The notes: generated by a model from the sequence alone, not told the origin. Shown: positions 5,554 through 54,156, numbered from the stretch's first letter. The stretch: DNA of 64,000 nucleotides from Bryobacteraceae bacterium (GCA_035632375.1 DASQGY010000037.1:5610-69609), one strand, 5' to 3'. Program-made: numbers and translations.

Positions 5554-7242
5554 CTACTTTACCGTAAAGTTGGCAGTGGGGGTTAGGGTCTGGTTCCGGT
5601 TCTTGTCCACTACCGTCATTTTCAACGTATACTGCCCCGGGTCGAGGCTTTGCAGCGGGAGCAGTTTCTCCACTGTCACCTGCTGCGAGGAAGCGCCCGG
5701 GATCTGGATCAATTCTTCGGTGTAATCGAGAACGGCCTTGCTGTCGCCGTTCTTGGTGATTTCATACTGTATCGAGCCGTTCGGCTTCTTGGTCTTCTCG
5801 TCCGGCCCAAAGTTGTAGAACTGCGTGTAAATTCCGAGCTTCTCGTTGCGATCGAAGGTGGCGCTCAACCGCGGCCGAACCTTGGTATCGCCAATCACGA
5901 ACTGGCCGGTACCGATGCTCCTTGTGGGGACCTTCTCGATAAGATCCGCCAGCATCAGGCTGCCCTGCGAGAGCTTCTCTTCGTCGTAATGCGGGACGTT
6001 GAGGGCCACGGGATAAGTGGTCATGTTGCCGCCCACCAGATCCTTGGCGACGATGTTGAGCCGGTACATGCCCGGCGGCAGCGGAATGGCCTTTTGATAA
6101 ACGGACGACCCTTCCACGGCCTTGCCCAACAGATCGGAGGCGACATCGATGGTCACTGCATCCTCAAACACGTTCACCGTGCGGCCGGCGATGGAACTAA
6201 TGCGGCCGTAGATGTTCACGGTCGACTTGGCCACGCCATCCTTCTGCGAGAACTGCAGGTCTTTGCGCTCGAACTGGATGGTGATGGTGGTGAGGATGGT
6301 GGAATCGGTGATTTTCAGATAATCGGTCTGGACGCGGAAAGGCAGCGTGTTGTAACGAATGTTGGAGCTGACCACGGCGTCCAGATCCTTGAACTTCACC
6401 GAAGGCGGCTTCTGCAATTTGGCGAACTGTTCCAGGCGCTCGAACTCGTTCATGCTGGCCGGCAGGGGCTGACCGCCGGTACCCAGGTGCGTGCCGTCCG
6501 TGCGATTGAAACGGTCAGTCTTGGAGGCCATTCCCATCTGTTCCATCAAGGTCAAGCCGGCGTTGGGAACATACAGCAGGGCGTCCTTTTCGGACGGGTC
6601 CATGGACATGTGATACTCACCGGTCATGGTGGTGTCGACAAATTCGATTTCGATGTTGGTGCCGATGCCTTCGATGTACCGATAGCGCCATTTTTCAAAG
6701 GGATAAACCGAAGTAGTGCCGCCGCCCTCTTCGTAGGGCCGCTCGTAGGTGCCGCCTGCCGGGTGCGACTCGTTCTCATCCGGGGGGCCGTAGACGATGT
6801 AGATGCGGCCGCGATCGGTCTTCCAGCCGGGGATGCCGGAAGCATAATGCTCGTTGGCATATTCGATGCGGCGGTAGTGCTCTTCCTTGAACTCGTTCTC
6901 TTCGGTGTCGGGCGTGGGGTCGCGGCGCAGCCAGAAGCTTTCGATGAAAGACTGGCGCTCGTCGTCGTTCGAGAGCAGCTTGAAGGCCTTGCGCTCTTCG
7001 TCGGAGATGATGTAGCCGACGTCTTCGTTCAGCCACTTCTTGTAGGGTGTTTCGAGCTCTTTGCGCAGCTTTTCTTCCTGTTTCTTGCGCTGCTTGTCGG
7101 TCATCGGCTTGGAGACGGTCTCCCTGGTGGACACCGAATCCGAGGTGGTCTTTTTCTTGGATTGCGCCACTGCGACGCTAAAAGCACCGGTGATGGCGAG
7201 AGCGACCGCCGTGCCGGAAATTACAAATAGCTTTGTTTTCAT
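5554..7242 (-). CDS. GWxTD domain-containing secreted protein
   Basis: Contains the diagnostic motif IPGWKTDRGRIYIVYGPPDE. Signal peptide MKTKLFVISGTAVALAITGAFSVAVAQ (Met at complement 7240-7242); the ORF track's alternative start is 7281. Immediately upstream of, and co-directional with, the beta-barrel gene. Confidence 0.85.
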   Translation of the reverse strand: MKTKLFVISGTAVALAITGAFSVAVAQSKKKTTSDSVSTRETVSKPMTDKQRKKQEEKLRKELETPYKKWLNEDVGYIISDEERKAFKLLSNDDERQSFIESFWLRRDPTPDTEENEFKEEHYRRIEYANEHYASGIPGWKTDRGRIYIVYGPPDENESHPAGGTYERPYEEGGGTTSVYPFEKWRYRYIEGIGTNIEIEFVDTTMTGEYHMSMDPSEKDALLYVPNAGLTLMEQMGMASKTDRFNRTDGTHLGTGGQPLPASMNEFERLEQFAKLQKPPSVKFKDLDAVVSSNIRYNTLPFRVQTDYLKITDSTILTTITIQFERKDLQFSQKDGVAKSTVNIYGRISSIAGRTVNVFEDAVTIDVASDLLGKAVEGSSVYQKAIPLPPGMYRLNIVAKDLVGGNMTTYPVALNVPHYDEEKLSQGSLMLADLIEKVPTRSIGTGQFVIGDTKVRPRLSATFDRNEKLGIYTQFYNFGPDEKTKKPNGSIQYEITKNGDSKAVLDYTEELIQIPGASSQQVTVEKLLPLQSLDPGQYTLKMTVVDKNRNQTLTPTANFTVK

Positions 7243-7455
7243 ACAATTCACCCAGGCCGGACCGACTCCGATCTGTCCCATTCTAGGCCTATTCGAAACC
7301 CCTGGTCAAGGGAGGGACGTGGACCGGGGCTGGGGCGTTTCACGTTGGTTGGATTGCCGCTGGGGGCCCGCGAACAAAGAATTATGGCCGCCGATGAACG
7401 CAGATGAACGCCGATAAGGCGGGCACGAATACTTGAGCCACGGTAATCTAGACTT

Positions 7456-9204: not shown

Positions 9205-10041
9205 ATGGAACACGTTTTATCGACACATTTGTTTGTCAATCACCGGCTCAACACCGTCTGGTTGGATAAGATACTGCAGGCCGGCGTGCCTGCGGTGGAG
9301 ATTTTCTGCGCGCGGCAGCATCTGGATTATCGCGATCGGGCGCAGATCAACGAGCTGGGGCACTGGTTCCGCGCTTCGGAGTTGAAGCTGCATTCGCTGC
9401 ATGGGCCGATGTACAGCGACGATGTGTGGGGACGGTCCGGTCCGAATTCGCACCTCTCGATTACCGAGCCGGTGAAATCGAAGCGCTTGCTGGTGGTGGA
9501 CGAAATCAAGCGGGCGTTGGACATCGCGGATGTGATTCCGTTTAAATTTCTGATCCAGCATCTCGGTGTTTCGCAGGAAGAATATGACGATCGCAAGCTG
9601 GAGTCAGCATTCGGCGCATTGGAGGAGATCAGTCTGTTTGCGCGCGAGCGCGGCGTTGAAGTGCTGCTGGAGAATATTCCGAACCAGCTTTCGAGCGCCG
9701 AGCGACTGGTGAGTTTTCTAAACCAGACGCATCTGAAGCTGAACTTCTGCCTGGATGTGGGCCATGCCAATATGCGGGAAGGGGTGTCGACGGCATACAC
9801 CATCATGAAGGGGCGCATCCGATCGACACATATACACGACAACAACGGCAAGGATGACAGCCATCTGTGGCCGTTGTATTCGGAAGGCGGCACCATCGAC
9901 TGGCCGGAGGCGATGAAGCTGCTGCGCACAGGCGCCGGCCAATATCCTTTGCTGCTGGAGTTGCGCGAGTATCCTGAGTTTCCGCTGCCGCAGGCGCTGG
10001 CGACGGTGAAGACTCTTTTCGAAAAACTAGAGACTATTTGA
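9205..10041 (+). CDS. Sugar phosphate isomerase/epimerase (xylose-isomerase-like TIM barrel)
   Basis: Family-typical N-terminus (LSTHLF), then LLENIPNQL...CLDVGHANM...STHIHDN (metal-binding His/Asp/Glu pattern). I prefer the ATG at 9205; the ORF track uses a GTG at 9187. Confidence 0.75.
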
Positions 10042-11351
10042 TGGCATACCCGAGAATCAGAATTGAAGATGCCGGCAAGCACGCCGGTGAATCCGTTGAA
10101 TTGGCGGGGTGGTTGTACAACCTGCGCAAGTCGGGCAAGATCGCGTTTCCACTGCTGCGCGATGGAACGGGGATCATGCAGTGCGTGGCGGTGAAGGCGA
10201 ATATCGACGAGGCGTTGTTTGAGACGCTGAAGAATTTGACGCAGGAATCGTCGCTGATTCTGCGCGGGAAGATTCGGGCGGAGCAGCGCGCGCCGGGCGG
10301 ATATGAGATGGACGTGGAAGGCGCAGAGGTGGTGCAGCGCGTTCCTGAAGCGGAGCCGTATCCGATCACGCCGAAGGAGCACGGTCCCGATTTCCTGATG
10401 GACCATCGGCACTTGTGGCTGCGCAGCAAGCGGCAGCACGCGGTGATCCGGGTGCGGCACGAAGTGATCAAGGCGGTTCGCGATTATTTCGATTCGCACG
10501 GCTTCACGCTGGTGGACACGCCCATTTTCACGCCGGCGGCTTGCGAAGGTACCACCACGCTGTTTGAGGTGGATTATTTCGAGGACGAGAAAGTCTATCT
10601 TACGCAGTCGGGCCAGCTTTACAACGAGGCGGACGCGATGGCGTTCGGCAAGGTTTACTGTTTCGGGCCGACGTTTCGCGCGGAGAAATCGAAAACGCGG
10701 CGTCACCTTACCGAATTCTGGATGGTGGAGCCGGAGATGGCTTATGCGACGCTGGAGGACGCCAAGCAACTGGCTGAGGATCTGATTGTTTTTGTGGTCG
10801 GGAGGGTGCTGGAGAATCGGCGCAAGGAACTGGAGGCGTTGGAGCGCGACATCGCGAAGCTGGAAACGGTGAAGGCGCCGTTTCCGCGGATGAGCTACGA
10901 CGACGCGGTGAAGGCGCTGCAGGCGAAGGGCAGCGAAATCCAATGGGGCGGCGATTTCGGCGGGCCGGATGAAACCATGATCACCGAGGGGTTGGATCGG
11001 CCGCTGATGGTGGATCGGTACCCTACGCAGGTGAAGGCTTTCTACTTTGAGCCGGACGCGGATCGGCCGGAGTTGGCGCTGGGTGTGGACGTGATCGCGC
11101 CGGAGGGATATGGCGAGATCGTCGGCGGCGGACAGAGGATTCACGATTTGAATTTGTTGCTGAAGCGGTTGGAGGAGCATAAGCTGCCGGCGGAGGCATT
11201 CAATTGGTATTTGGATTTGCGGAAGTTTGGCAGCGTGCCGCATGCGGGGTTTGGGATGGGGATTGAGCGATTTGTGGCGTGGATGTGCGGGTTGGAGCAT
11301 ATTCGGGAGACGATTCCGTATCCCCGGATGCTGTATCGGACGCGGCCGTGA
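10038..11351 (+). CDS. asnS: Asparagine--tRNA ligase (Thermus/archaeal-type, ~437 aa)
   Basis: Class II aaRS motifs are present: [57 protein letters not shown] and a C-terminal IPYPRM. Collinear along its whole length with the ~438-aa Thermus AsnRS as I recall it. The ATG overlaps the upstream stop (ATGA). Confidence 0.93.
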
Positions 11352-44716: not shown

Positions 44717-45437
44717 TCTTTACGCCGGCACATCCGGATTCGCCTATCCAAGCTGGAAACCCGAGTTCTATCCGGAAAAGCTGGCGGCGAAAAAGTTCCT
44801 GTCGTATTACTCCCAGCGCCTGAACGCGGTGGAGGTGAACTACACTTTTCGGCGGCTTCCTTCGGTGTCCACGCTCGAAAACTGGGTGGCCGAAACGCGC
44901 CCCGGCTTCGTGTTTCCGCTGAAAGCGCACATGCGCATCACACATATCCTGCGGCTGAAGCCGACGGAGTTCACGGAAGTGTTCTTCAAGGCGATTGACC
45001 CCTTACGCTCCGCCCGCCGCCTAGGCCCGGTGCTGTTCCAATTGCCGCCTGCATTGAAACGCGATGACGCGTTGCTGGGCGATTTCCTGGCAACGCTGCC
45101 CCACGATCTGCGCTGCGCTTTCGAATTCCGCCACCCCTCCTGGCTGGCGGACGAAACCTACAAGCTGCTGGAGAAGCACGGTGTGGCGCTGTGCCTGGCG
45201 GAATCGGAAAAGCTGGTGATCCCGGAAGTGGTCACTGCGAACTTCGTGTACTCGCGCCTGCGGATGCCGGAGTATTCACCGGAAGATCGCAAAGAAATTG
45301 CAAGCCGCGTAGAGCACTTGTTAGATCGCGGCCAGGACGTCTACGTTTTCTTCAAGCACGAAGAAACCGCCGCGGGTGCACTCTACGCAGAAGAACTACT
45401 GAAAAACTTCCCCAGCGAAACAGCAAGTAAGGAATAA
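44709..45437 (+). CDS. DUF72 (UPF0759) family protein
   Basis: Family-typical N-terminus MPNLYAGTSGFAYPSWKPEFYP...YYSQRLNAVEVNYTFRRLP, and later FEFRHPSW. The start is moved to the ATG at 44709. Confidence 0.85.
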   Translation: MPNLYAGTSGFAYPSWKPEFYPEKLAAKKFLSYYSQRLNAVEVNYTFRRLPSVSTLENWVAETRPGFVFPLKAHMRITHILRLKPTEFTEVFFKAIDPLRSARRLGPVLFQLPPALKRDDALLGDFLATLPHDLRCAFEFRHPSWLADETYKLLEKHGVALCLAESEKLVIPEVVTANFVYSRLRMPEYSPEDRKEIASRVEHLLDRGQDVYVFFKHEETAAGALYAEELLKNFPSETASKE

Positions 45438-45519
45438 AGGCGCGCAGCGCCCACCACATTCTGGATTGTGGATTCTCTCCAGAAACTCGCGCCAAACCTA
45501 TGCTCATTCGGACTGTAGG

Positions 45520-45605
45520 GCAGGTTGGAAACCTGCAGCGGGTTGGCAACCCGCTTGGCGAAGCGCGATTAACAATCGCGCGCAGGGTGGCAACCTGCCC
45601 CACAG
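45520..45605. repeat. Array of four tetraloop hairpins ending in CCCACAG
   Basis: GCAGGTT-ggaa-AACCTGC (45520-45536), AGCGGGTT-ggc-AACCCGCT (45537-45555), GCGCGATT-aac-AATCGCGC (45563-81) and GCAGGGT-ggc-AACCTGC (45582-98), followed by CCCACAG. The stems are shared with the arrays at 11384-11426 and 28098-28140. Confidence 0.8.
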
Positions 45606-45695
45606 GCTGATGATCAATACCCGACGCAACGAGTCTCTGTTTCATGCAACCGCCCCGATGGGGCGGCTGCGCGCTGGCTCCTGGATTCCAGTACC

Positions 45696-46541
45696 CTACC
45701 TCGCCGCCTTCTGCTTCCTGCCCACCGCCTTCTGTTTCGGCGCTTCGGCCTCCAACCCGGCCTCGGAAGCTGCCGGCTTCTTGGCGATCGCCAGGCTCTT
45801 CTTCAACGCCTCCATGATGTCGATCACTTTGGCCGGCTCGGCATGTGGCGGCGTCACCACTTCCTGACCCTTGATCTTGGCATCGATCATGGCTTGCAGG
45901 TTCTCGCGATAAGTGTCCTTGTACTTCTCGGGTTCAAAGGGAGCGGCCAGCGATTCCACCAACATCTCCGCCAGCTTCACTTCCTGGTCCTTCACCAGGC
46001 TGGTGTCCGTGCGGAATTCCTCCACCTTGCGCACTTCATGCGCGAAGTACATGGTATGCATCATCAGCCCGTTGGACCCCGGCCGGAAGATGACGATGTG
46101 CTCGCGATTGTGCATGGCGATCTTAGCCACGCCCACGTAGCCGGTTCGCTTCAGGGTGTTGAAGAGCAGCGCGTACGGTTTTTCGCCCGCATCGTCCGGC
46201 GCCATGTAGAAGGAGCTTTCGAAATAGACGGGATCCACTTCAGTGGACTTGACGAACTCCAGGATCTCCATCACCCTCGCCGACGGCGGCGCCATCTTCT
46301 TGATTTCCTCGTCCTCGATGACGACGTAGCGGTCCTTTTCGTATTCGTAGCCCTTCACGATTTCGCTGCGCGGGACGGGCTTATCCTCGGCCTGGCAGTA
46401 GATCACCTGCTTAATGCGCGAGTTGTCCGTCTTGTGTAGCTGGTTAAAGCTGATGCTATCGCCGCGCGCGGCGGTGAACAGCTTGACGGGAAACGAAACG
46501 AGACCGAAAGTGAGGTGCCCTTTCCATACTGTAGAGGCCAT
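45696..46541 (-). CDS. ku: Ku protein (bacterial NHEJ)
   Basis: Canonical N-terminus WKGHLTFGLVSFPVKLFTAARGDSISFNQLH, the Ku core, and a Lys-rich C-terminal tail. Confidence 0.95.
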   Translation of the reverse strand: MASTVWKGHLTFGLVSFPVKLFTAARGDSISFNQLHKTDNSRIKQVIYCQAEDKPVPRSEIVKGYEYEKDRYVVIEDEEIKKMAPPSARVMEILEFVKSTEVDPVYFESSFYMAPDDAGEKPYALLFNTLKRTGYVGVAKIAMHNREHIVIFRPGSNGLMMHTMYFAHEVRKVEEFRTDTSLVKDQEVKLAEMLVESLAAPFEPEKYKDTYRENLQAMIDAKIKGQEVVTPPHAEPAKVIDIMEALKKSLAIAKKPAASEAGLEAEAPKQKAVGRKQKAAR

Positions 46542-46651
46542 GGCGACAATCTCCGATGTTAATCCTATATAGCACGATCGTCAAACATTTTCAATAGGGA
46601 ACGTTTCTAGGGCTCTGGACCCCCGCCGCCGCGCGCTATGATGGCCTCACC

Positions 46652-47473
46652 ATGTCCAGCGCAGCCGATCCCATCGAACGAATCCAGTGCCAGTGGTGCC
46701 AAGGCATGAACGAAAAGACGGCTCTCACCTGCCGGGCCTGTGGCGCGCCGCTGGACATCCGCAATCTGGTGAGCGAGTCGGGCTGGCGGGAAGCGCCGCG
46801 CATCAAGGACATGACCGAGTTTCAGTTCAGCTCCAGCACCTGCCAGGTGGAGGGCGAGATCGTGCCGGTAGCTGAAATCAACCTGGGGGCGGGCGACTCG
46901 ATTTACTTCGAGCACCACATCATGCTGTGGAAGGACGACACGGTGCCTCTTACAGTGCTGCAGTTGCCTGGCGGCATGAAGCGTGCTTTCGCCGGAATGC
47001 CGTTCATCATCAGCGTCGCCACAGGGCCGGGCCGGATTGCCTTTTCGCGCGACGCTACAGGCGAGCTGGTGGTTCTGCCGCTGCATCCGGGCATGGAACT
47101 GGATGTGCGCGAGCACGCCTTCCTGCTGGCATCGCACCAGATCAATTATTCGTTCGTGCGTATCAAAGGACTGGCCAACATCATTTTCGGCGGCCAGGGC
47201 ATGTTCATGGATCGCTTTGTCACCACGAATACTCCGGGACTGTTGATTCTGCATGGCTACGGAAATGTCTTCGAGCGTGTGCTGAAGGCGGGCGAAAGCA
47301 TCATGGTGGAGCCGGGCGCGTTCTTGTACAAAGACTCGTCGGTGACCATGCAGGTGGAATTCCAAAAGCTGGGGACGGGATTCTTCGGCGGCACGAACAT
47401 GAGTTTGGCCAGGATGACGGGGCCGGGACGCGTGGGCATACAGTCGATGTACGTCCATCACCGCACGGAATAG
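46652..47473 (+). CDS. AIM24-family (DUF124/TIGR00266-like) protein with N-terminal zinc ribbon
   Basis: CQWCQGMNEKTALTCRACG ribbon, then an AIM24-like beta-sandwich pattern (VEGEIVPVAEINLGAGDSIYFEHHIMLW...GPGRIAFSRDATGELVVLPL...GQGMFMDRF...GPGRVGIQSM). Confidence 0.75.
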   Translation: MSSAADPIERIQCQWCQGMNEKTALTCRACGAPLDIRNLVSESGWREAPRIKDMTEFQFSSSTCQVEGEIVPVAEINLGAGDSIYFEHHIMLWKDDTVPLTVLQLPGGMKRAFAGMPFIISVATGPGRIAFSRDATGELVVLPLHPGMELDVREHAFLLASHQINYSFVRIKGLANIIFGGQGMFMDRFVTTNTPGLLILHGYGNVFERVLKAGESIMVEPGAFLYKDSSVTMQVEFQKLGTGFFGGTNMSLARMTGPGRVGIQSMYVHHRTE

Positions 47474-47487
47474 GGCGAGGCGAATCC

Positions 47488-48516
47488 ATGTTCTGTACAC
47501 ACTGTGGCGCGGGGATGCAAGAGACGGCGGCGTTTTGCGGCGCTTGCGGGACGAGGGTGAAACGCAGCGATCCCGCTCCGGCTCCCGCTCCGCCACCGGT
47601 TGCCGCTGTGCCCGTGGTCCAAGCGCCGCCGCCTTCCGGAAAGCAAGCCAACTGCAACTGGTGCGGCGCGGCGGTGGACGCGGCCCAGTTGAGCTGCCCC
47701 CGTTGCGGTGCGACACTGAAATCCAAATCCATCAGCACCGAATCTGGTTGGGCCAAGCTTCCCGGCCGCCGCGACATGGCCAAGCTTCAGTTCGGCGACT
47801 CCTTCTGCCAGATCGAAGGTCTCTATGTGCCGGTGGCCGACGTGAATCTCGCTGGTGCGGATAGCGTCTACTTTGCGCACCATGTCCTGCTGTGGAAGGA
47901 TCCGCAGGTGCCCATCACAACTCTGCCGCTGAGTGGCGGCTGGAAGCGGATGTTCGCGGGGCTCCCGTTGATCATGACTCAGGCGCACGGTCCGGGCCAC
48001 ATCGCTTTCTCGCGCGACGCTCCAGGGGAGATGATTGCGCTGCCCATTCAGCCCGGCCAGATAGTGGATGTTCGTGAGCATCTGTTCATGGTGGCCACCG
48101 GCAACGTCGCCTATGATTGGTTCTCGACGAACATCTGGTTCACCACGCAGTCCGGCAACGATCGCGAGACGCACTACCCCGTGGGAATGTTCATGGATCG
48201 GTTCACTGCGCCACAATCGCCGGGGCTGCTGTTGTTGCACGCCGCCGGCAATGTATTCGTACGTGAGCTGGCTGCGAATCAGACGATTCTGGTGAAACCG
48301 ACGGCGCTGATCTTCAAAGACCCCGCAGTCCAGATGCAGTTGCATTTCGAACGTCCGCGGACCGGGTTCAGTCTCTGGGGCTCCTGGGCGAATAAGTACA
48401 TGTGGCTGCGCGTGTGGGGGCCGGGCCGCGTGGCGGTGCAGTCCGTGTTCGAGCCGCTGGAAGGCGAGAATCGGAATATTTATAGTTGCTCTTCGGCCAC
48501 GGAGCGGCAATGGTAG
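47488..48516 (+). CDS. AIM24-family protein with two N-terminal zinc ribbons and a Pro/Ala linker (paralogue of the upstream gene)
   Basis: Starts at the ATG at 47488 ([21 protein letters not shown] ... [19 protein letters not shown]). The body is collinear with the upstream paralogue ([28 protein letters not shown]...[20 protein letters not shown]...[10 protein letters not shown]). The track's longer ORF (from 46927) overlaps the upstream gene out of frame. Confidence 0.75.
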
Positions 48517-48577
48517 CAGCGGCCGGGTTACGCGTGCTAATCTTCGAGAGGCAGTTCAAAATCCGGTGGGAGGAAAT

Positions 48578-49120
48578 ATGAAAGCCATCCGCGCGCTAGC
48601 GGCGTGTTCTCTCGTGGTGGCCGCTCTGTCGGCCCAGCAAATCACGCCTCCGAAAACTACGCTGAAAGTCGGCGACCAGGCTCCCGACTTCACGCTTCCC
48701 GACAGCTCCAGAAAGCCGGTGAAGCTTTCCGATTTTCGCGGCAAGAAGGTCGTGATCCTGGCCTTCTTTCCGGCGGCATTCAGCGGTGGTTGAACGAAGG
48801 AACTAACCGCATACCAGTCTGGTATTGCAAAGTTCGATGCGATGGATGCTCAGGTTATTGGTGTCAGCACGGATTCCACGTTTGTTCTCGACCACTGGAA
48901 GAAGGAATTGAACGCCAGTTATATGCTGCTTAGCGACCATCAGCGGACGGTCTCCGAGCAGTATGGCGTGCTGATCACACAAGTGGGCATGTCCAACCGG
49001 GCTACGTTTGTGATCGACAAGGACGGCAAGATCGCATCCATTGAGGAAGGCGGCAGTGCTATCGATCCCAACGGGGCGGAGACGGCGTGTAGCCGGTTGG
49101 CGCATAAAAAGGCGGAGTAG
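48578..49120 (+). CDS. Secreted AhpE/BCP-like peroxiredoxin with in-frame TGA (putative selenocysteine) at the peroxidatic Cys position
   Basis: Track ORFs 48566-48793 and 48842-49120 are in the same frame, separated only by TGA 48791-48793, with no other stop. The joined sequence reads ...[11 protein letters not shown]...[16 protein letters not shown][TGA]TKELTAYQ...VIGVSTDS...[12 protein letters not shown]. This is the Prx PxxxTxxC active-site context with TGA where Cys is expected. RBS GGGAGGAAAT precedes the ATG at 48578. Confidence 0.75.
48800..48835 (+). promoter_or_regulatory. Candidate bacterial SECIS stem-loop downstream of the UGA
   Basis: Lower stem GAAC (48800-48803) pairs with GUUC (48832-48835). 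Upper stem GCAUACCA (48809-16) pairs with UGGUAU-U-GC (48820-28, one bulged U). The small apical loop contains GU (48817-18), about 24 nt after the UGA, within the spacing described for bSECIS elements. Confidence 0.5.
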
Positions 49121-49162
49121 GGCGCCGGAATCCGTGTCTTCATTACCGTGGTAATATAAGAC

Positions 49163-49426
49163 ATGGCGATTGCGCAATCGAAGATTACCTCGCAGGGCCA
49201 GATCTCCGTTCCAGCCGATGTACGGCGGAAGCTAGGAGTTGGCCCTGGTTCTGTTTTGGAGTGGCAAGAAGAAGAGGGCAAGATCGTCGTCCGCCGCGCG
49301 GGGAAGTACACTTTCGAGGACATCCATCGCGCGTTGTTTGGCACTAAGAAGCCAAAACCGATCACTGTGGAACAGATGGACGAGGCTATCGCAAAATACA
49401 TTCGCGAGAAGCATGGTCGCCGTTGA
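49163..49426 (+). CDS. vapB: AbrB/MazE/SpoVT-family antitoxin (VapB-like)
   Basis: SpoVT/AbrB swapped-hairpin motif ITSQGQISVPADVRRKLGVGPGSVLEW. 87 aa, overlapping the downstream PIN gene by 14 nt. Confidence 0.8.
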   Translation: MAIAQSKITSQGQISVPADVRRKLGVGPGSVLEWQEEEGKIVVRRAGKYTFEDIHRALFGTKKPKPITVEQMDEAIAKYIREKHGRR

Positions 49427-49793
49427 TACCAATGTTCTCGTCCGCCTGGTATTGCGCGACGACCTGAGTCAAACCCAGGCAGCCCAGCGATTCATCGCAA
49501 ACGGGTGCTGGGCTTCCATACTTGCGATCGCGGAGACCGTCTGGGTCCTGCAGTCCTATTACGGCTTCACCTGGCAGCAAATCGTTACGGCGCTGGACAT
49601 GCTGGTTAACAACCAGCAACTTGTGATTGAGAATTCAGAAGCTGTCTCCGATGCCCTGGAACTATTACGATCCAAGCCGACGCTTGGGTTCGTCGATTGC
49701 CTGATGATCGAGCTTGCTCGCAAAGCAGGCCATCTACCATTCGGCACTTTCGATCGCGCCCTCGCCAAGGTCCATGGAGCGACCCGGCTCTAG
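49413..49793 (+). CDS. vapC: PIN-domain toxin (VapC-like)
   Basis: Starts at the ATG at 49413: MVAVDTNVLVRLVLRDD (first acidic PIN residue). Later ...IAETVWVL..., ...GFVDCLMIELA... and a C-terminal FDR. 126 aa. Confidence 0.85.
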   Translation: MVAVDTNVLVRLVLRDDLSQTQAAQRFIANGCWASILAIAETVWVLQSYYGFTWQQIVTALDMLVNNQQLVIENSEAVSDALELLRSKPTLGFVDCLMIELARKAGHLPFGTFDRALAKVHGATRL

Positions 49794-49796
49794 GAC

Positions 49797-51295
49797 TTAA
49801 TCCGCCGCCTTGTTCGCCGTACTCGCCGGCTTCCAACGCACCACCGGTTTGCGCGCGGCTGTTACTTCATCCACGCGGCTGGTTCTGGTGTTGTGCGGGG
49901 CCTTCAGGACGAACTCGGGATTGTCCTCGATTTCCTTGGCGATCGAAATCATCGCGTCGACGAACAGGTCCAGTTCGGCCTTGCTCTCCGTTTCCGTCGG
50001 CTCGATCATCATCGCGCCGTGCACGATCAGCGGAAAGCTGACGGTGTAAGGATGGAAACCGTAATCGATCAGACGCTTGGCGATATCGCCGGTGTGGACT
50101 CCGCGCTTGGCTTGGCGGGAGTCGCTGAAGACGCACTCGTGCATGGTGGGCGCCTGGTGAGGCAACTCGTAGTGGGGCGCCATCAGCGCGCGGATGTAAG
50201 TGGCGTTCAGTACCGCGTCCATGGTCGCGTTGCGCAATCCGGCGCCGCCGTGCGCCATGATGTATGCCAGCGCGCGAATGTGCATGCCGATGTTGCCGTA
50301 GTAAGCCCGCACGCGGCCCAGTGACTGCGGCAGGTCGTAATTCCAAGTCCACTGGCCGGCGGCGCGCTGCAGGCGGGGCTTCGGCAGAAACGGAATGATG
50401 TGCTTCTTTACCGCCACAGGGCCCGATCCCGGGCCACCGCCGCCGTGTGGCGTTGAAAATGTTTTGTGCAGATTCAGGTGCATCACGTCGATACCGAAAT
50501 CGCCCGGCCGCGCGATGCCCACCAGCGCGTTCATGTTCGCGCCGTCCATGTAGACCATCGCACCCTTAGCGTGCAGGATTTCGGCGATGCGCGTGATGTT
50601 CTCTTCGAAAACGCCCAGCGTGTTGGGATTGGTGATCATCAGCGCAGCAACATCGTCGTTCACCGCGCGCGCCAGCGATTCCACGTCCACCATGCCGCGC
50701 TCGTTGGACTTGATGTTTTCCACCGCGTAGCCGGCCATGGTCGCAGTAGCGGGATTCGTTCCATGCGCCGAATCCGGGATCAGCAGTTTCTTGCGCGCAT
50801 TGCCGCGGGATTCGAGCAGCGCGCGGATCAGCAGGATGCCGGTGAACTCGCCGTGCGCGCCCGCGGCCGGCTGCAGCGTCACCGCGTCCATTCCGGTGAT
50901 TTCCGCCAGGATGGTCTCCAGCGTACCCATCACTTCCAGGATTCCCTGCGAGAGCGATTCCGGCTGATAGGGATGCGCCCAAGCCAAGCCTTCGATACGG
51001 GCCACCTGCTCATTGACGCGCGGGTTGTATTTCATGGTGCAGGATCCGAGCGGATAGAGGCCCAGGTCGATGGCGTAATTGTGCGTCGAGAGGCGGGTGA
51101 AATGGCGGATGGCCTCCACCTCGCTCACTTCGGGAAAATTCTCGATCTCCTGCCGGGTGTTCTGCGCGCCCAGAGCGGCCGCGGCGTCCACCTTCGGTAC
51201 GTCCAACGGAGGCAACTGGTAACCGCGCTTTCCGGGAGAGCTGTTCTCAAACAGCAGCGGCTCGTTCTGATTGATGTGCGGGCGAACTTTTTTGA

Positions 51296-51299
<4 letters not shown>
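49797..51299 (-). CDS. gcvPB: Glycine dehydrogenase (decarboxylating) subunit 2
   Basis: 500 aa. Contains the PLP-Lys region [18 protein letters not shown] and the family N-terminus [18 protein letters not shown]. Confidence 0.96.
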
Positions 51300-52612
<1,313 letters not shown>

Positions 52613-52623
52613 GGGTTATTGTC

Positions 52624-53016
52624 TCAGTGCCCGGACCCCTCCGCTCCGACATAGCTTTGATAGTCTTCCGCGGAGAGTAGGTTCTTAATTTCCTCGGGTG
52701 CGGACAACTTGATCTTAGCAAGCCAGGCGTCGCCATGAGGATCTGCGTTGAGTTTTTCGGGCGCCGTAGTCAGCGCGTCGTTCACCGCCACCACCTCGCC
52801 GGAAACAGGCGCATAGATGTCGGAAACGGCCTTCACCGATTCCACCGACCCCAACGCCTTGCCCTGCTCCACTTGCGCGCCCACCTTCGGAAGATCGACG
52901 TAGACTATGTCGCCGAGTTCTTCCTGCGCATGGTGCGTGATTCCCACCACGCCGGTGTCGCCCTCAACCCGCACCCACTCATGTTCTTTGGTGTAACGAA
53001 AATTTGCTGGATACAT
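52624..53016 (-). CDS. gcvH: Glycine cleavage system H protein
   Basis: YTKEHEWVRVEG..., with the lipoyl-Lys motif SVESVKAVSDIYAPVSGEV. Confidence 0.96.
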   Translation of the reverse strand: MYPANFRYTKEHEWVRVEGDTGVVGITHHAQEELGDIVYVDLPKVGAQVEQGKALGSVESVKAVSDIYAPVSGEVVAVNDALTTAPEKLNADPHGDAWLAKIKLSAPEEIKNLLSAEDYQSYVGAEGSGH

Positions 53017-54122
53017 TTATTTCGCTCGTTTGTAGAATGGCGTCGGAACCGTGATCGCTTCCACCGGCTGATTGCGGATCATGATCTGAATCTGCTGGCC
53101 CGGCTTCGCCCGATCGGATGGAAGATAACACAGTCCGATGTTCTTGTTTAACGTCGGAGACGGCCCGCCGCTGGTCACCCAGCCTGCCGCGGAGCCATCC
53201 AGGAAAACCTCGTAGCCATCGCGCCCAATGCCGCGGCCCGTCATTTCGAAGCCCACCAGCTTGCGCGTCACTCCCTGTTCCTTCTGTTTCGCCAGCGCTG
53301 CCCTCCCGATAAAATCGCCTTTGTCCAGTTTGACGATCCAGGCCAGATCGGCTTCATACGGCGTGATGGACGCGTGAATCTCGTGGCCATAGAGCGCCAT
53401 CTTCGATTCCAGCCGCAGCGTGTTGCGCGCTCCCAGCCCGCAAGGCTTGATGCCGAACTCCGCGCCCGCGTCCAATATCTCGTTCCAGATGCGCTCCGCT
53501 TCTTCCGGTGCGACGTAAATCTCGAAGCCGTCTTCGCCGGTATATCCGGTGCGCGCAATCCGCGCCGGAGTCCCCGATACCACGCCATCGGTGAAGTGAT
53601 AATACTGGATCGGCGTCAAATCCGTCTTGGTCAGCTTTTGCAGCGTAGCCGGGCCCTTCGGCCCCTGAATCGCCAATTGCGCGTAACGTTCGCTGGCAAA
53701 CTCCACTTTGGCGTTGTGCTTGTTCGCCGCGGCGATGTGCTCGAAATCCTTTTCCTGGTTCGAAGCATTGACGCAGATGAAGTAGTGGTCATCAGCTACC
53801 TTGTGCACCAGGATGTCGTCCACGAAGCCGCCATGTTCATACAGCAGCCCGGAATACTGCGCTTGGCCGATCTTCAGCTTCGCGGCCGCGTTGGTGGTTA
53901 CGTGCTCCGTCAGCGCCAGCGCGTCCGGCCCATGGATCTCGATTTCGCCCATGTGGCTGACGTCGAACAGTCCGACATTCTTGCGCACCCGTGATGCTCG
54001 TCGAGGATGCCCGAATACTGGACCGGCATATCCCAGCCGCCGAAGTCCACCATCTTGGCCCCCAGCTTGCGATGCGCGGCGTTCAGGGGAGTGGTTTTGA
54101 GCGCGGCGCTGGATTGAGTCAT
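53017..54122 (-). pseudogene. gcvT: Glycine cleavage system T protein (aminomethyltransferase) with an apparent 1-nt frameshift near 53988-53990
   Basis: The N-terminal 44 codons ([47 protein letters not shown] at complement 54120-54122 after AGGAG) are in one frame. The rest ([20 protein letters not shown]... to 53017) is in another frame. The switch falls at a GGG run (minus strand); a GGGG there would give ...[19 protein letters not shown], matching the E. coli context DEHHAVR...GMFDVSHM. Confidence 0.85.
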
Positions 54123-54156
54123 GCGGACTCCTATTCTATCAGCCGTGCGAGCCCGC

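Follow-up and report, generated by a model that had tools for sequence, protein, structure and literature searches.

A probable selenocysteine-containing peroxiredoxin, predicted to be exported, encoded across an in-frame TGA in a Bryobacteraceae genome

In a stretch of 64,000 nucleotides from a Bryobacteraceae bacterium (the window, by which we mean the whole 64-kb stretch that was analysed), a peroxiredoxin-like reading frame is interrupted by a single TGA codon. Two key questions are raised by the locus: (i) whether the two parts form one intact gene; and (ii) if so, which amino acid is placed at the TGA. An earlier note, made from the sequence of the window alone, had proposed a probable selenoprotein, and the proposal is supported here by the correspondence of the TGA to a Cys codon, by TGA-bearing orthologues under purifying selection and by a SECIS hairpin with covariation. 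In our reading the locus is very probably a genuine selenoprotein gene, coding for a predicted exported peroxiredoxin in which selenocysteine (Sec) would be the peroxidatic residue.

The two open reading frames of the earlier note, 48566-48793 and 48842-49120, do lie in one frame, and translation confirms that they are split by the TGA at 48791-48793 alone. From the ATG at 48578 to the TAG at 49118-49120 there is a single frame of 181 codons, of which this TGA is the sole internal in-frame stop. The ATG is favoured as the start over a GTG upstream at 48566 because of the GGAGG listed below. Read through, the frame yields the ordinary peroxiredoxin of about 180 residues that had been foreseen: the product has exactly 180, and it matches the Pfam family AhpC-TSA over the full length of the domain (PF00578, E 6.8e-38, model positions 1-123 of 124). 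Redoxin is matched as well (PF08534, E 5.8e-26), as are 159 solved peroxiredoxin sequences in the PDB, the best at E 1.5e-26. The features of the gene are as follows.

48569..48573, + strand: Shine-Dalgarno-like GGAGG, 4 nt 5′ of the ATG, read from the sequence
48578..49120, + strand: complete coding sequence of the probable selenoprotein, 180 aa and TAG stop, by translation; AhpC/TSA-family peroxiredoxin with the putative Sec as residue 72
48578..48634, + strand: predicted Sec-type signal peptide ending before QQ, from the sequence by a hydropathy heuristic
48770..48793, + strand: active-site motif P65-A-A-F-S69-G-G-U72 (PxxxSxxU), aligned to PxxxTxxC of solved peroxiredoxins
48791..48793, + strand: UGA, probable selenocysteine codon, residue 72, at the peroxidatic position, from the codon column of 165 homologous places
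48800..48835, + strand: bacterial SECIS hairpin, from its fold, covariation, a covariance model and the bSECIS consensus
48998..49000, + strand: codon of Arg141 (motif NRATF), the Arg conserved in peroxiredoxin active sites, from alignment to the block 'nRatFvid' in PDB peroxiredoxins
49088..49090, + strand: codon of Cys171, candidate resolving cysteine 99 residues past the Sec, from its conserved position

The position of the TGA within the protein is precise. In alignments to 2ywn, AhpE (5id2/1xvw) and 2cx3 it falls on the peroxidatic Cys of the block FFPAAF(T/S)xxC-TKE, and in the active-site block of M. tuberculosis AhpE, 'FFPLAFTGICQGEL', it is the peroxidatic Cys that is aligned with the TGA of the window. 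These alignments, together with a codon column in which the homologues carry either a Cys codon or TGA, bear out the claim that the stop codon stands in place of the peroxidatic Cys. The relatives with TGA (Sec forms) share the motif [V/I/P]xxx[T/S]xxU, the Pro being replaced by V or I in 84 of 102. The window gene has kept the Pro and has Ser for Thr, and Ser occurs in only 3 of the 102. A strict regular expression for the Arg block, [GAS][NQ]R[AST]TF, is matched in 67 of the 102 Sec forms, and we take Arg141 to have the catalytic role that is general to peroxiredoxins.

A frame split by one stop codon might be nothing more than a pseudogene or a sequencing error, in which a TGC or TGT of a Cys-peroxiredoxin gene has become TGA and the product is a fragment of 71 residues. 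One base is enough for this change, Cys-form homologues exist at 56-67% identity, a related copy of the gene (L049) is frameshifted, and no machinery for Sec was seen in the 64-kb window. The homologues, however, argue strongly against such an origin. They comprise 160 loci from scans of species-representative genomes and metagenome contigs, and 165 aligned places with the window's own gene included. Over the 165 places the catalytic codon is TGA in 108, TGC in 37 and TGT in 20, and is never any other codon. All 18 places that are at least 65% identical to the window gene (itself counted) have TGA, as do 81 of the 82 that reach 50%.

The hosts of these genes are diverse. Among the best 36 genome loci, every one of which has TGA at the catalytic codon, are metagenome-assembled genomes (MAGs) labelled Bryobacterales, Pyrinomonadaceae, Blastocatellia, Terriglobia, Acidobacteriaceae and Ca. 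Acidoferrales, and one labelled 'Deltaproteobacteria'; at least five acidobacterial orders or families are thus represented in addition to the 'Deltaproteobacteria' MAG. The places that share 65% identity or more with the window gene are spread over Bryobacterales, Pyrinomonadaceae, Blastocatellia, Terriglobia and Acidobacteriaceae. Thousands of full-length relatives were obtained when the protein was used as a query, and the closest carry the label Bryobacteraceae. At three loci, L023 (641, 1308), L105 (2566, 3236) and L118 (1913, 2583), the Sec-peroxiredoxin gene is present twice in tandem, with a spacing of about 670 bp, and both genes carry TGA as their catalytic codon.

Further disabling mutations in close relatives had been named beforehand as a mark of a true pseudogene. 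One copy among the best 36 loci does carry such a mutation; in the other 35 the TGA is the sole in-frame stop, and there is no frameshift. The exception, L049 (OZ242366.1, Bryobacterales, 10001-10560), is near-identical to L014 and L016 except that its frame shifts by one base after '...DYGV'. The shift marks either a true pseudogene or an indel error of a long-read assembly, and the copy has the look of genuine decay that the window gene does not have.

The sequence beyond the TGA is also maintained as protein. Between the window gene and 16 relatives, pairwise dN/dS (Nei-Gojobori) downstream of the TGA is 0.07-0.28, with dS of at least 0.9, so that synonymous sites are close to saturation. 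Both sides of the TGA taken together span 0.06-0.28, and the upstream range equals the downstream range. The coding sequence 3′ of the TGA is under purifying selection, and the region is a single intact gene. Because the TGA is shared and the sequence downstream of it is under purifying selection, a pseudogene or sequencing error can be regarded as excluded, and we give it only a very slight probability; the codon choice described next, which upholds a hairpin in TGA forms only, speaks against it as well.

The earlier note had also described a 36-nt stem-loop at 48800-48835, starting 7 nt past the TGA and with GU in its loop, and folding reproduces it. The lower stem is formed by 48800-04/48831-35 and the upper stem by 48809-15/48821-28, with U 48825 bulged; the apical loop, AGUCU, is 48816-20, and its GU lies 24 nt past the UGA. 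As a single sequence the hairpin is weak evidence, because its fold of -11.1 kcal/mol has a z of only -1.75 and is equalled in stability by 12 of 200 shuffles; it rises far above chance through comparison.

The bSECIS consensus of Zhang and Gladyshev (2005), as quoted in PMC13188914, has a loop of 3-9 nt, a stem of 4-16 bp, a G in the first two loop positions (N1-G-[G|U]-N-N2) at 16-37 nt from the UGA, and a minimum free energy (MFE) of -7.5 kcal/mol or lower. The window hairpin falls within it on all four counts, having a 5-nt loop A-G-U-C-U, an upper stem of 7 bp with one bulged U, a spacing of 22 nt between UGA and loop, and an MFE of -11.1 kcal/mol.

More telling is the behaviour of the hairpin among the relatives. 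When 33 Sec-form segments are aligned without gaps (A1), 86.9% of the cells of the proposed structure are paired, vs 20-44% when the 3′ partners are slid, and RNAalifold also arrives at the upper stem described above. Pair 24-32, which is C48814-G48822 in the window, is U-A in 20 segments and C-G in 13, and is broken in none, although this main compensatory change largely follows the split between Bryobacterales and Pyrinomonadaceae/Blastocatellia and may therefore amount to few independent events. Pair 21-36 is G-C in 23, A-U in 4 and C-G in 1. When all 94 distinct Sec-form segments are considered, the seven upper-stem pairs are complete in 73 and at least six are present in 85, vs none complete in 57 Cys-form segments. 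The apical loop of the Sec forms is AGGCU in 70 of the 94 and AGUCU, as in the window, in 17.

The closest Cys forms, L167/P0003 (67% identity), L168/P0009, L169/P0045 and L095, have 3-4 of the 7 pairs. Their peptide at this place is identical or almost so (YQSGI, YQADI), and it is the codons that differ, such as GGC/GAC for GGT/GAT, and break the stem. Because the closest Cys forms break the stem in this way, codon choice is constrained solely where the catalytic codon is TGA.

A covariance model (R1, from alignment A2) was built from 32 relatives with the window left out. On the 64-kb window it gives one strong match, at 48791-48840, with 69.9 bits, E 6.8e-13 and no non-canonical pair; the next-best match in the window has 14.3 bits. 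At the homologous site of Cys forms the model scores 12-27 bits, and a share of the score is therefore owed to coding homology alone. No SECIS or other relevant Rfam family was found over the whole window at gathering thresholds, or in 45300-49300 at E up to 1. As an RNA structure the hairpin is under selection that goes with the TGA, and with the consensus features, the covariation and the covariance-model match its SECIS-like nature, as first proposed, is upheld.

The distribution of Sec and Cys forms bears on how the two are related. In a neighbour-joining tree, drawn without support values, Sec forms occur on every deep branch of the exported clade, and Cys forms are nested at at least four places inside Bryobacterales. 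The nesting suggests that Sec was repeatedly replaced by Cys and that the SECIS then decayed; such reversions appear, as far as gene sequences can tell, to have taken place more than once inside Bryobacterales.

If the gene is intact, the TGA must be read as some amino acid, and one scenario is that UGA has become a sense codon throughout the genome (code 4 or 25). Close homologues seem to say just this in the databases, where several of their products have Trp at the catalytic position: 'W' stands there in 7 of the 10 best protein matches (P0001, P0002, P0004, P0005, P0007, P0008 and P0010, from JGI). The DNA behind these products, including loci L001-L004, nevertheless has TGA in frame at that codon, and the 'W' is explained by a gene caller that evidently applied a code with TGA=Trp to contigs about 1 kb long. 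The catalytic Trp is a systematic database artefact, by which selenoproteins are disguised as Trp mutants.

The window itself points the same way. Its 32 long coding-type ORFs end in TAG (15), TAA (10) and TGA (7), gcvPA being among the seven, and a scan of the 64 kb found no other convincing in-frame TGA between coding-like segments or inside coding regions. UGA is therefore not reassigned, since 7 of the 32 ORFs end in TGA and a second in-frame candidate was not found; the probability that we leave to reassignment is negligible. For a genome of 59% G+C, TGA seems under-used and TAG over-used as stop codons, on a small sample of 32 ORFs.

The genes for decoding Sec were sought directly. With E. 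coli queries, tblastn found no match to SelA, SelB or SelD at E <= 1e-5 in the window and 84 loci, and ARAGORN found no tRNA-Sec in the 64-kb window or in any related locus. Acidobacteria are recorded with three selenoprotein families, and Solibacter usitatus has SelA, SelB and two FdhA selenoproteins (Zhang et al. 2006, PMC1794560); an acidobacterium is listed with three known selenoproteins in PMC12013277. With the Solibacter SelA as query, at least 8000 proteins were matched at E up to 1e-30; the best 120 of these are at least 71% identical to it, and several are named Bryobacteraceae or Acidobacteriia. Judged from these gene records, the Sec trait is present in the lineage, both in Solibacter usitatus and through a SelA that is widespread in Bryobacteraceae.

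Three SelA records (P0222, P0199 and P0122) were compared with the peroxiredoxin loci for SelA and a TGA-bearing peroxiredoxin in one assembly, and there was no match; at the loci checked for the same three records, selA does not adjoin selB or selC. In L171 (Bryobacteraceae), selA (6055-7377, + strand) stands alone beside efp rather than with selB/selC, and a tRNA-Pro(CGG) lies antisense just upstream of it (5918-5995, - strand). In the supplement of PMC1794560, the SelA of Solibacter is extended at its N-terminus by 'GEWIRTTGLLVPNQALYQAEPRPE', which has the appearance of a tRNA gene read as protein.

A second scenario accepts that the UGA is decoded but holds that the residue is not Sec: a tRNA(Cys) that resembles tRNA(Sec) and depends on SelB might insert Cys, or near-cognate read-through might place Trp or Cys there. 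Sequence analysis is blind to which amino acid enters at the codon. For some bacteria it has been proposed that tRNA(Sec)-like tRNAs recode UGA to Cys in a SelB-dependent way, and in low-selenium cells Cys or Trp is found at Sec codons at low frequency. On the other hand, SelA, the maker of Sec-tRNA(Sec), is widespread in the lineage, and Solibacter has SelA and SelB as well as FdhA selenoproteins. Insertion of Cys would bring no gain over TGC or TGT, which the relatives use freely, and an enzyme with Trp as its catalytic residue would be inactive. We consider decoding as an amino acid other than Sec to be improbable, and the chance that the hairpin is a recoding signal for a selenium-free product to be similarly small.

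With Sec as the preferred reading, a probable course of events can be outlined. During translation the hairpin 7 nt past UGA72 would act as a SECIS in the mRNA, its loop A-G-U-C-U being bound by SelB·GTP·Sec-tRNA(Sec). The complex would compete with release factor 2 for the UGA in the A site of the ribosome and deliver Sec there, and the product would then be exported and its signal peptide cut off. Once the enzyme is mature, S69 and R141 would activate the selenolate of U72 to reduce peroxide; the selenolate would turn into a selenenic acid, which would most likely be resolved by the lone conserved Cys171 to give a selenenylsulfide; this would in turn be reduced by some thiol-disulfide oxidoreductase. 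ORF clustering around 51 Sec-form loci gave no conserved neighbour or redox partner.

Two parts of this outline draw on further comparisons. The earlier note had called the protein secreted, and a signal-peptide-like N-terminus agrees with that term: by the hydropathy heuristic, a hydrophobic N-terminal extension ending in A-x-A/Q is present in 90 of 93 distinct Sec forms vs 3 of 53 distant Cys forms, which are apparently cytoplasmic. Export itself is a prediction from this N-terminus, and the window peroxiredoxin is accordingly described here as probably periplasmic or extracytoplasmic. As to the resolving residue, exactly one Cys lies downstream of U in 100 of 102 Sec forms, near the C-terminus, at +99 in 80 and at +100 in 16. 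Distant Cys forms carry a Cys of the BCP type at +5, a position at which the Sec clade has none. Because of the single conserved C-terminal Cys at +99/+100, we infer a cycle of the 2-Cys type through an Se-S bond with Cys171.

How the window gene relates to known systems can be considered next. Peroxiredoxins with a TxxU site (PF00578/COG1225) are one of a small number of bacterial selenoprotein families with experimental verification (Söhling 2001, as cited in PMC9312934 and PMC13188914), and a Sec-peroxiredoxin of Geobacter, WP_011365628.1, is listed in both of these sources. In PMC1794560 the Prx selenoprotein family is defined by its T/SxxU/C site. Like the members of this family, for example PrxU of Eubacterium acidaminophilum, the window protein has the AhpC/TSA fold with Sec at the place of the peroxidatic Cys in T/SxxU and an in-frame SECIS hairpin right after the UGA, and Cys orthologues coexist with Sec forms in a pattern of Sec/Cys interconversion. 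We therefore place the window gene in the known Sec-peroxiredoxin family as a new member, since it has all of the family features that can be read from a gene.

There are also differences. Against the PrxU model of NCBIfam (NF040737) the window protein scores 83 bits, where the equivalog cut-off is 270. Unlike the known Sec-peroxiredoxins, it has a predicted signal peptide and a candidate resolving Cys about 99 residues downstream, near the C-terminus; most members of its clade have V or I for the motif Pro, and the window protein itself has Ser for Thr. The hosts differ as well, the known ones being anaerobic Firmicutes and Deltaproteobacteria and those of the clade soil Acidobacteriota.

The description of the protein as AhpE-like in the earlier note is only loosely right. 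AhpE (Rv2238c; 1xvw, 4x0x, 5id2) ranks second among the solved homologues (E about 1e-21 to 1e-22), and its active-site block FFPLAFTGIC and Arg block NRGTFV resemble those of the window protein. However, AhpE is a cytoplasmic 1-Cys enzyme with Cys rather than Sec and has neither a signal peptide nor a conserved C-terminal Cys, whereas the window protein has predicted export and such a Cys. Because no NCBIfam equivalog cut-off is passed, we treat the likeness to AhpE as a resemblance rather than as a sign of membership.

BCP/PrxQ (PRK09437; 2ywn/4g2e, 2cx3) provides the best match in both NCBIfam (83.7 bits) and the PDB (E 1.5e-26), with the same fold and the same PAAF(T/S)xxC-TKE active-site block, but 83.7 bits is below the cut-off of 140 (NF006960 / PRK09437), and the Sec clade lacks a Cys at +5 (CxxxxC), where BCP usually has its resolving Cys. 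The hairpin can be compared in a similar way with the SECIS elements of E. coli fdhF/fdnG. Like these, it lies a few nt past the UGA inside the ORF and has a small loop with G and then U/G; unlike them, it has a bulged U on the 3′ side of the stem, it shares no primary-sequence similarity with them, and its binding of SelB is predicted.

The motif of the clade (FTGGU and similar) is absent from the supplement of Zhang et al. (2006), and for this reason the family apparently lies outside the 2006 set. There appears to be no curated model for the predicted exported acidobacterial clade, with its C-terminal Cys, V/I in place of Pro and a SECIS of its own, and the general selenoprotein papers that were consulted give no description of it. 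A more far-reaching suggestion is that this is a distinct subfamily of exported Sec-peroxiredoxins, ancestral and widespread in soil Acidobacteriota, with a signal peptide, [V/I/P]xxxTxxU, a C-terminal resolving Cys and its own SECIS; we offer it tentatively, as a possibility whose chances we put at somewhat under even. If it is true, the periplasmic peroxide defence of some of the most abundant aerobic soil bacteria would hang on the supply of selenium.

The mechanism and the family are already established, and what is known of Sec decoding is unchanged by this gene. Its practical bearing is on annotation: in public databases the gene and more than 100 relatives are split, truncated, called pseudogenes or given a catalytic Trp. 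No NCBIfam equivalog would rescue these annotations, and a family model of UGA plus SECIS, such as R1, would correct them. The clade would also represent a selenium-dependent antioxidant enzyme, predicted to be exported, that is conserved over several orders of Acidobacteriota, a dominant soil phylum, and its Sec and Cys forms provide a clean natural series in which Sec/Cys exchange and SECIS decay can be studied.

Finally, we note the surroundings of the gene, which sits between two AIM24-domain genes and a MazE/PIN pair.

46598-48516, + strand: two consecutive AIM24-domain genes, the second with an N-terminal double zinc ribbon, upstream of the peroxiredoxin gene
49163-49793, + strand: MazE-antitoxin/PIN-toxin pair, directly downstream of the peroxiredoxin gene
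49797-54135, - strand: gcvT-H-PA-PB glycine-cleavage operon, beyond the MazE/PIN pair

In other genomes the AIM24, MazE/PIN and gcv genes are not conserved beside the peroxiredoxin gene, and a promoter and terminator scan around the gene gave nothing informative. Further upstream, a structured element occupies 45505-45615 (+ strand) in the gap separating a DUF72 gene from a Ku gene; ARAGORN called it a 95-nt 'tRNA-Ala(ggc)', but it is no tRNA. No Rfam family matches it, and it is not repeated within the 64-kb window. The element consists of a long outer stem around two hairpins and folds at -62.6 kcal/mol (z -6.3), a stability that is reached by 0 of 200 shuffles.
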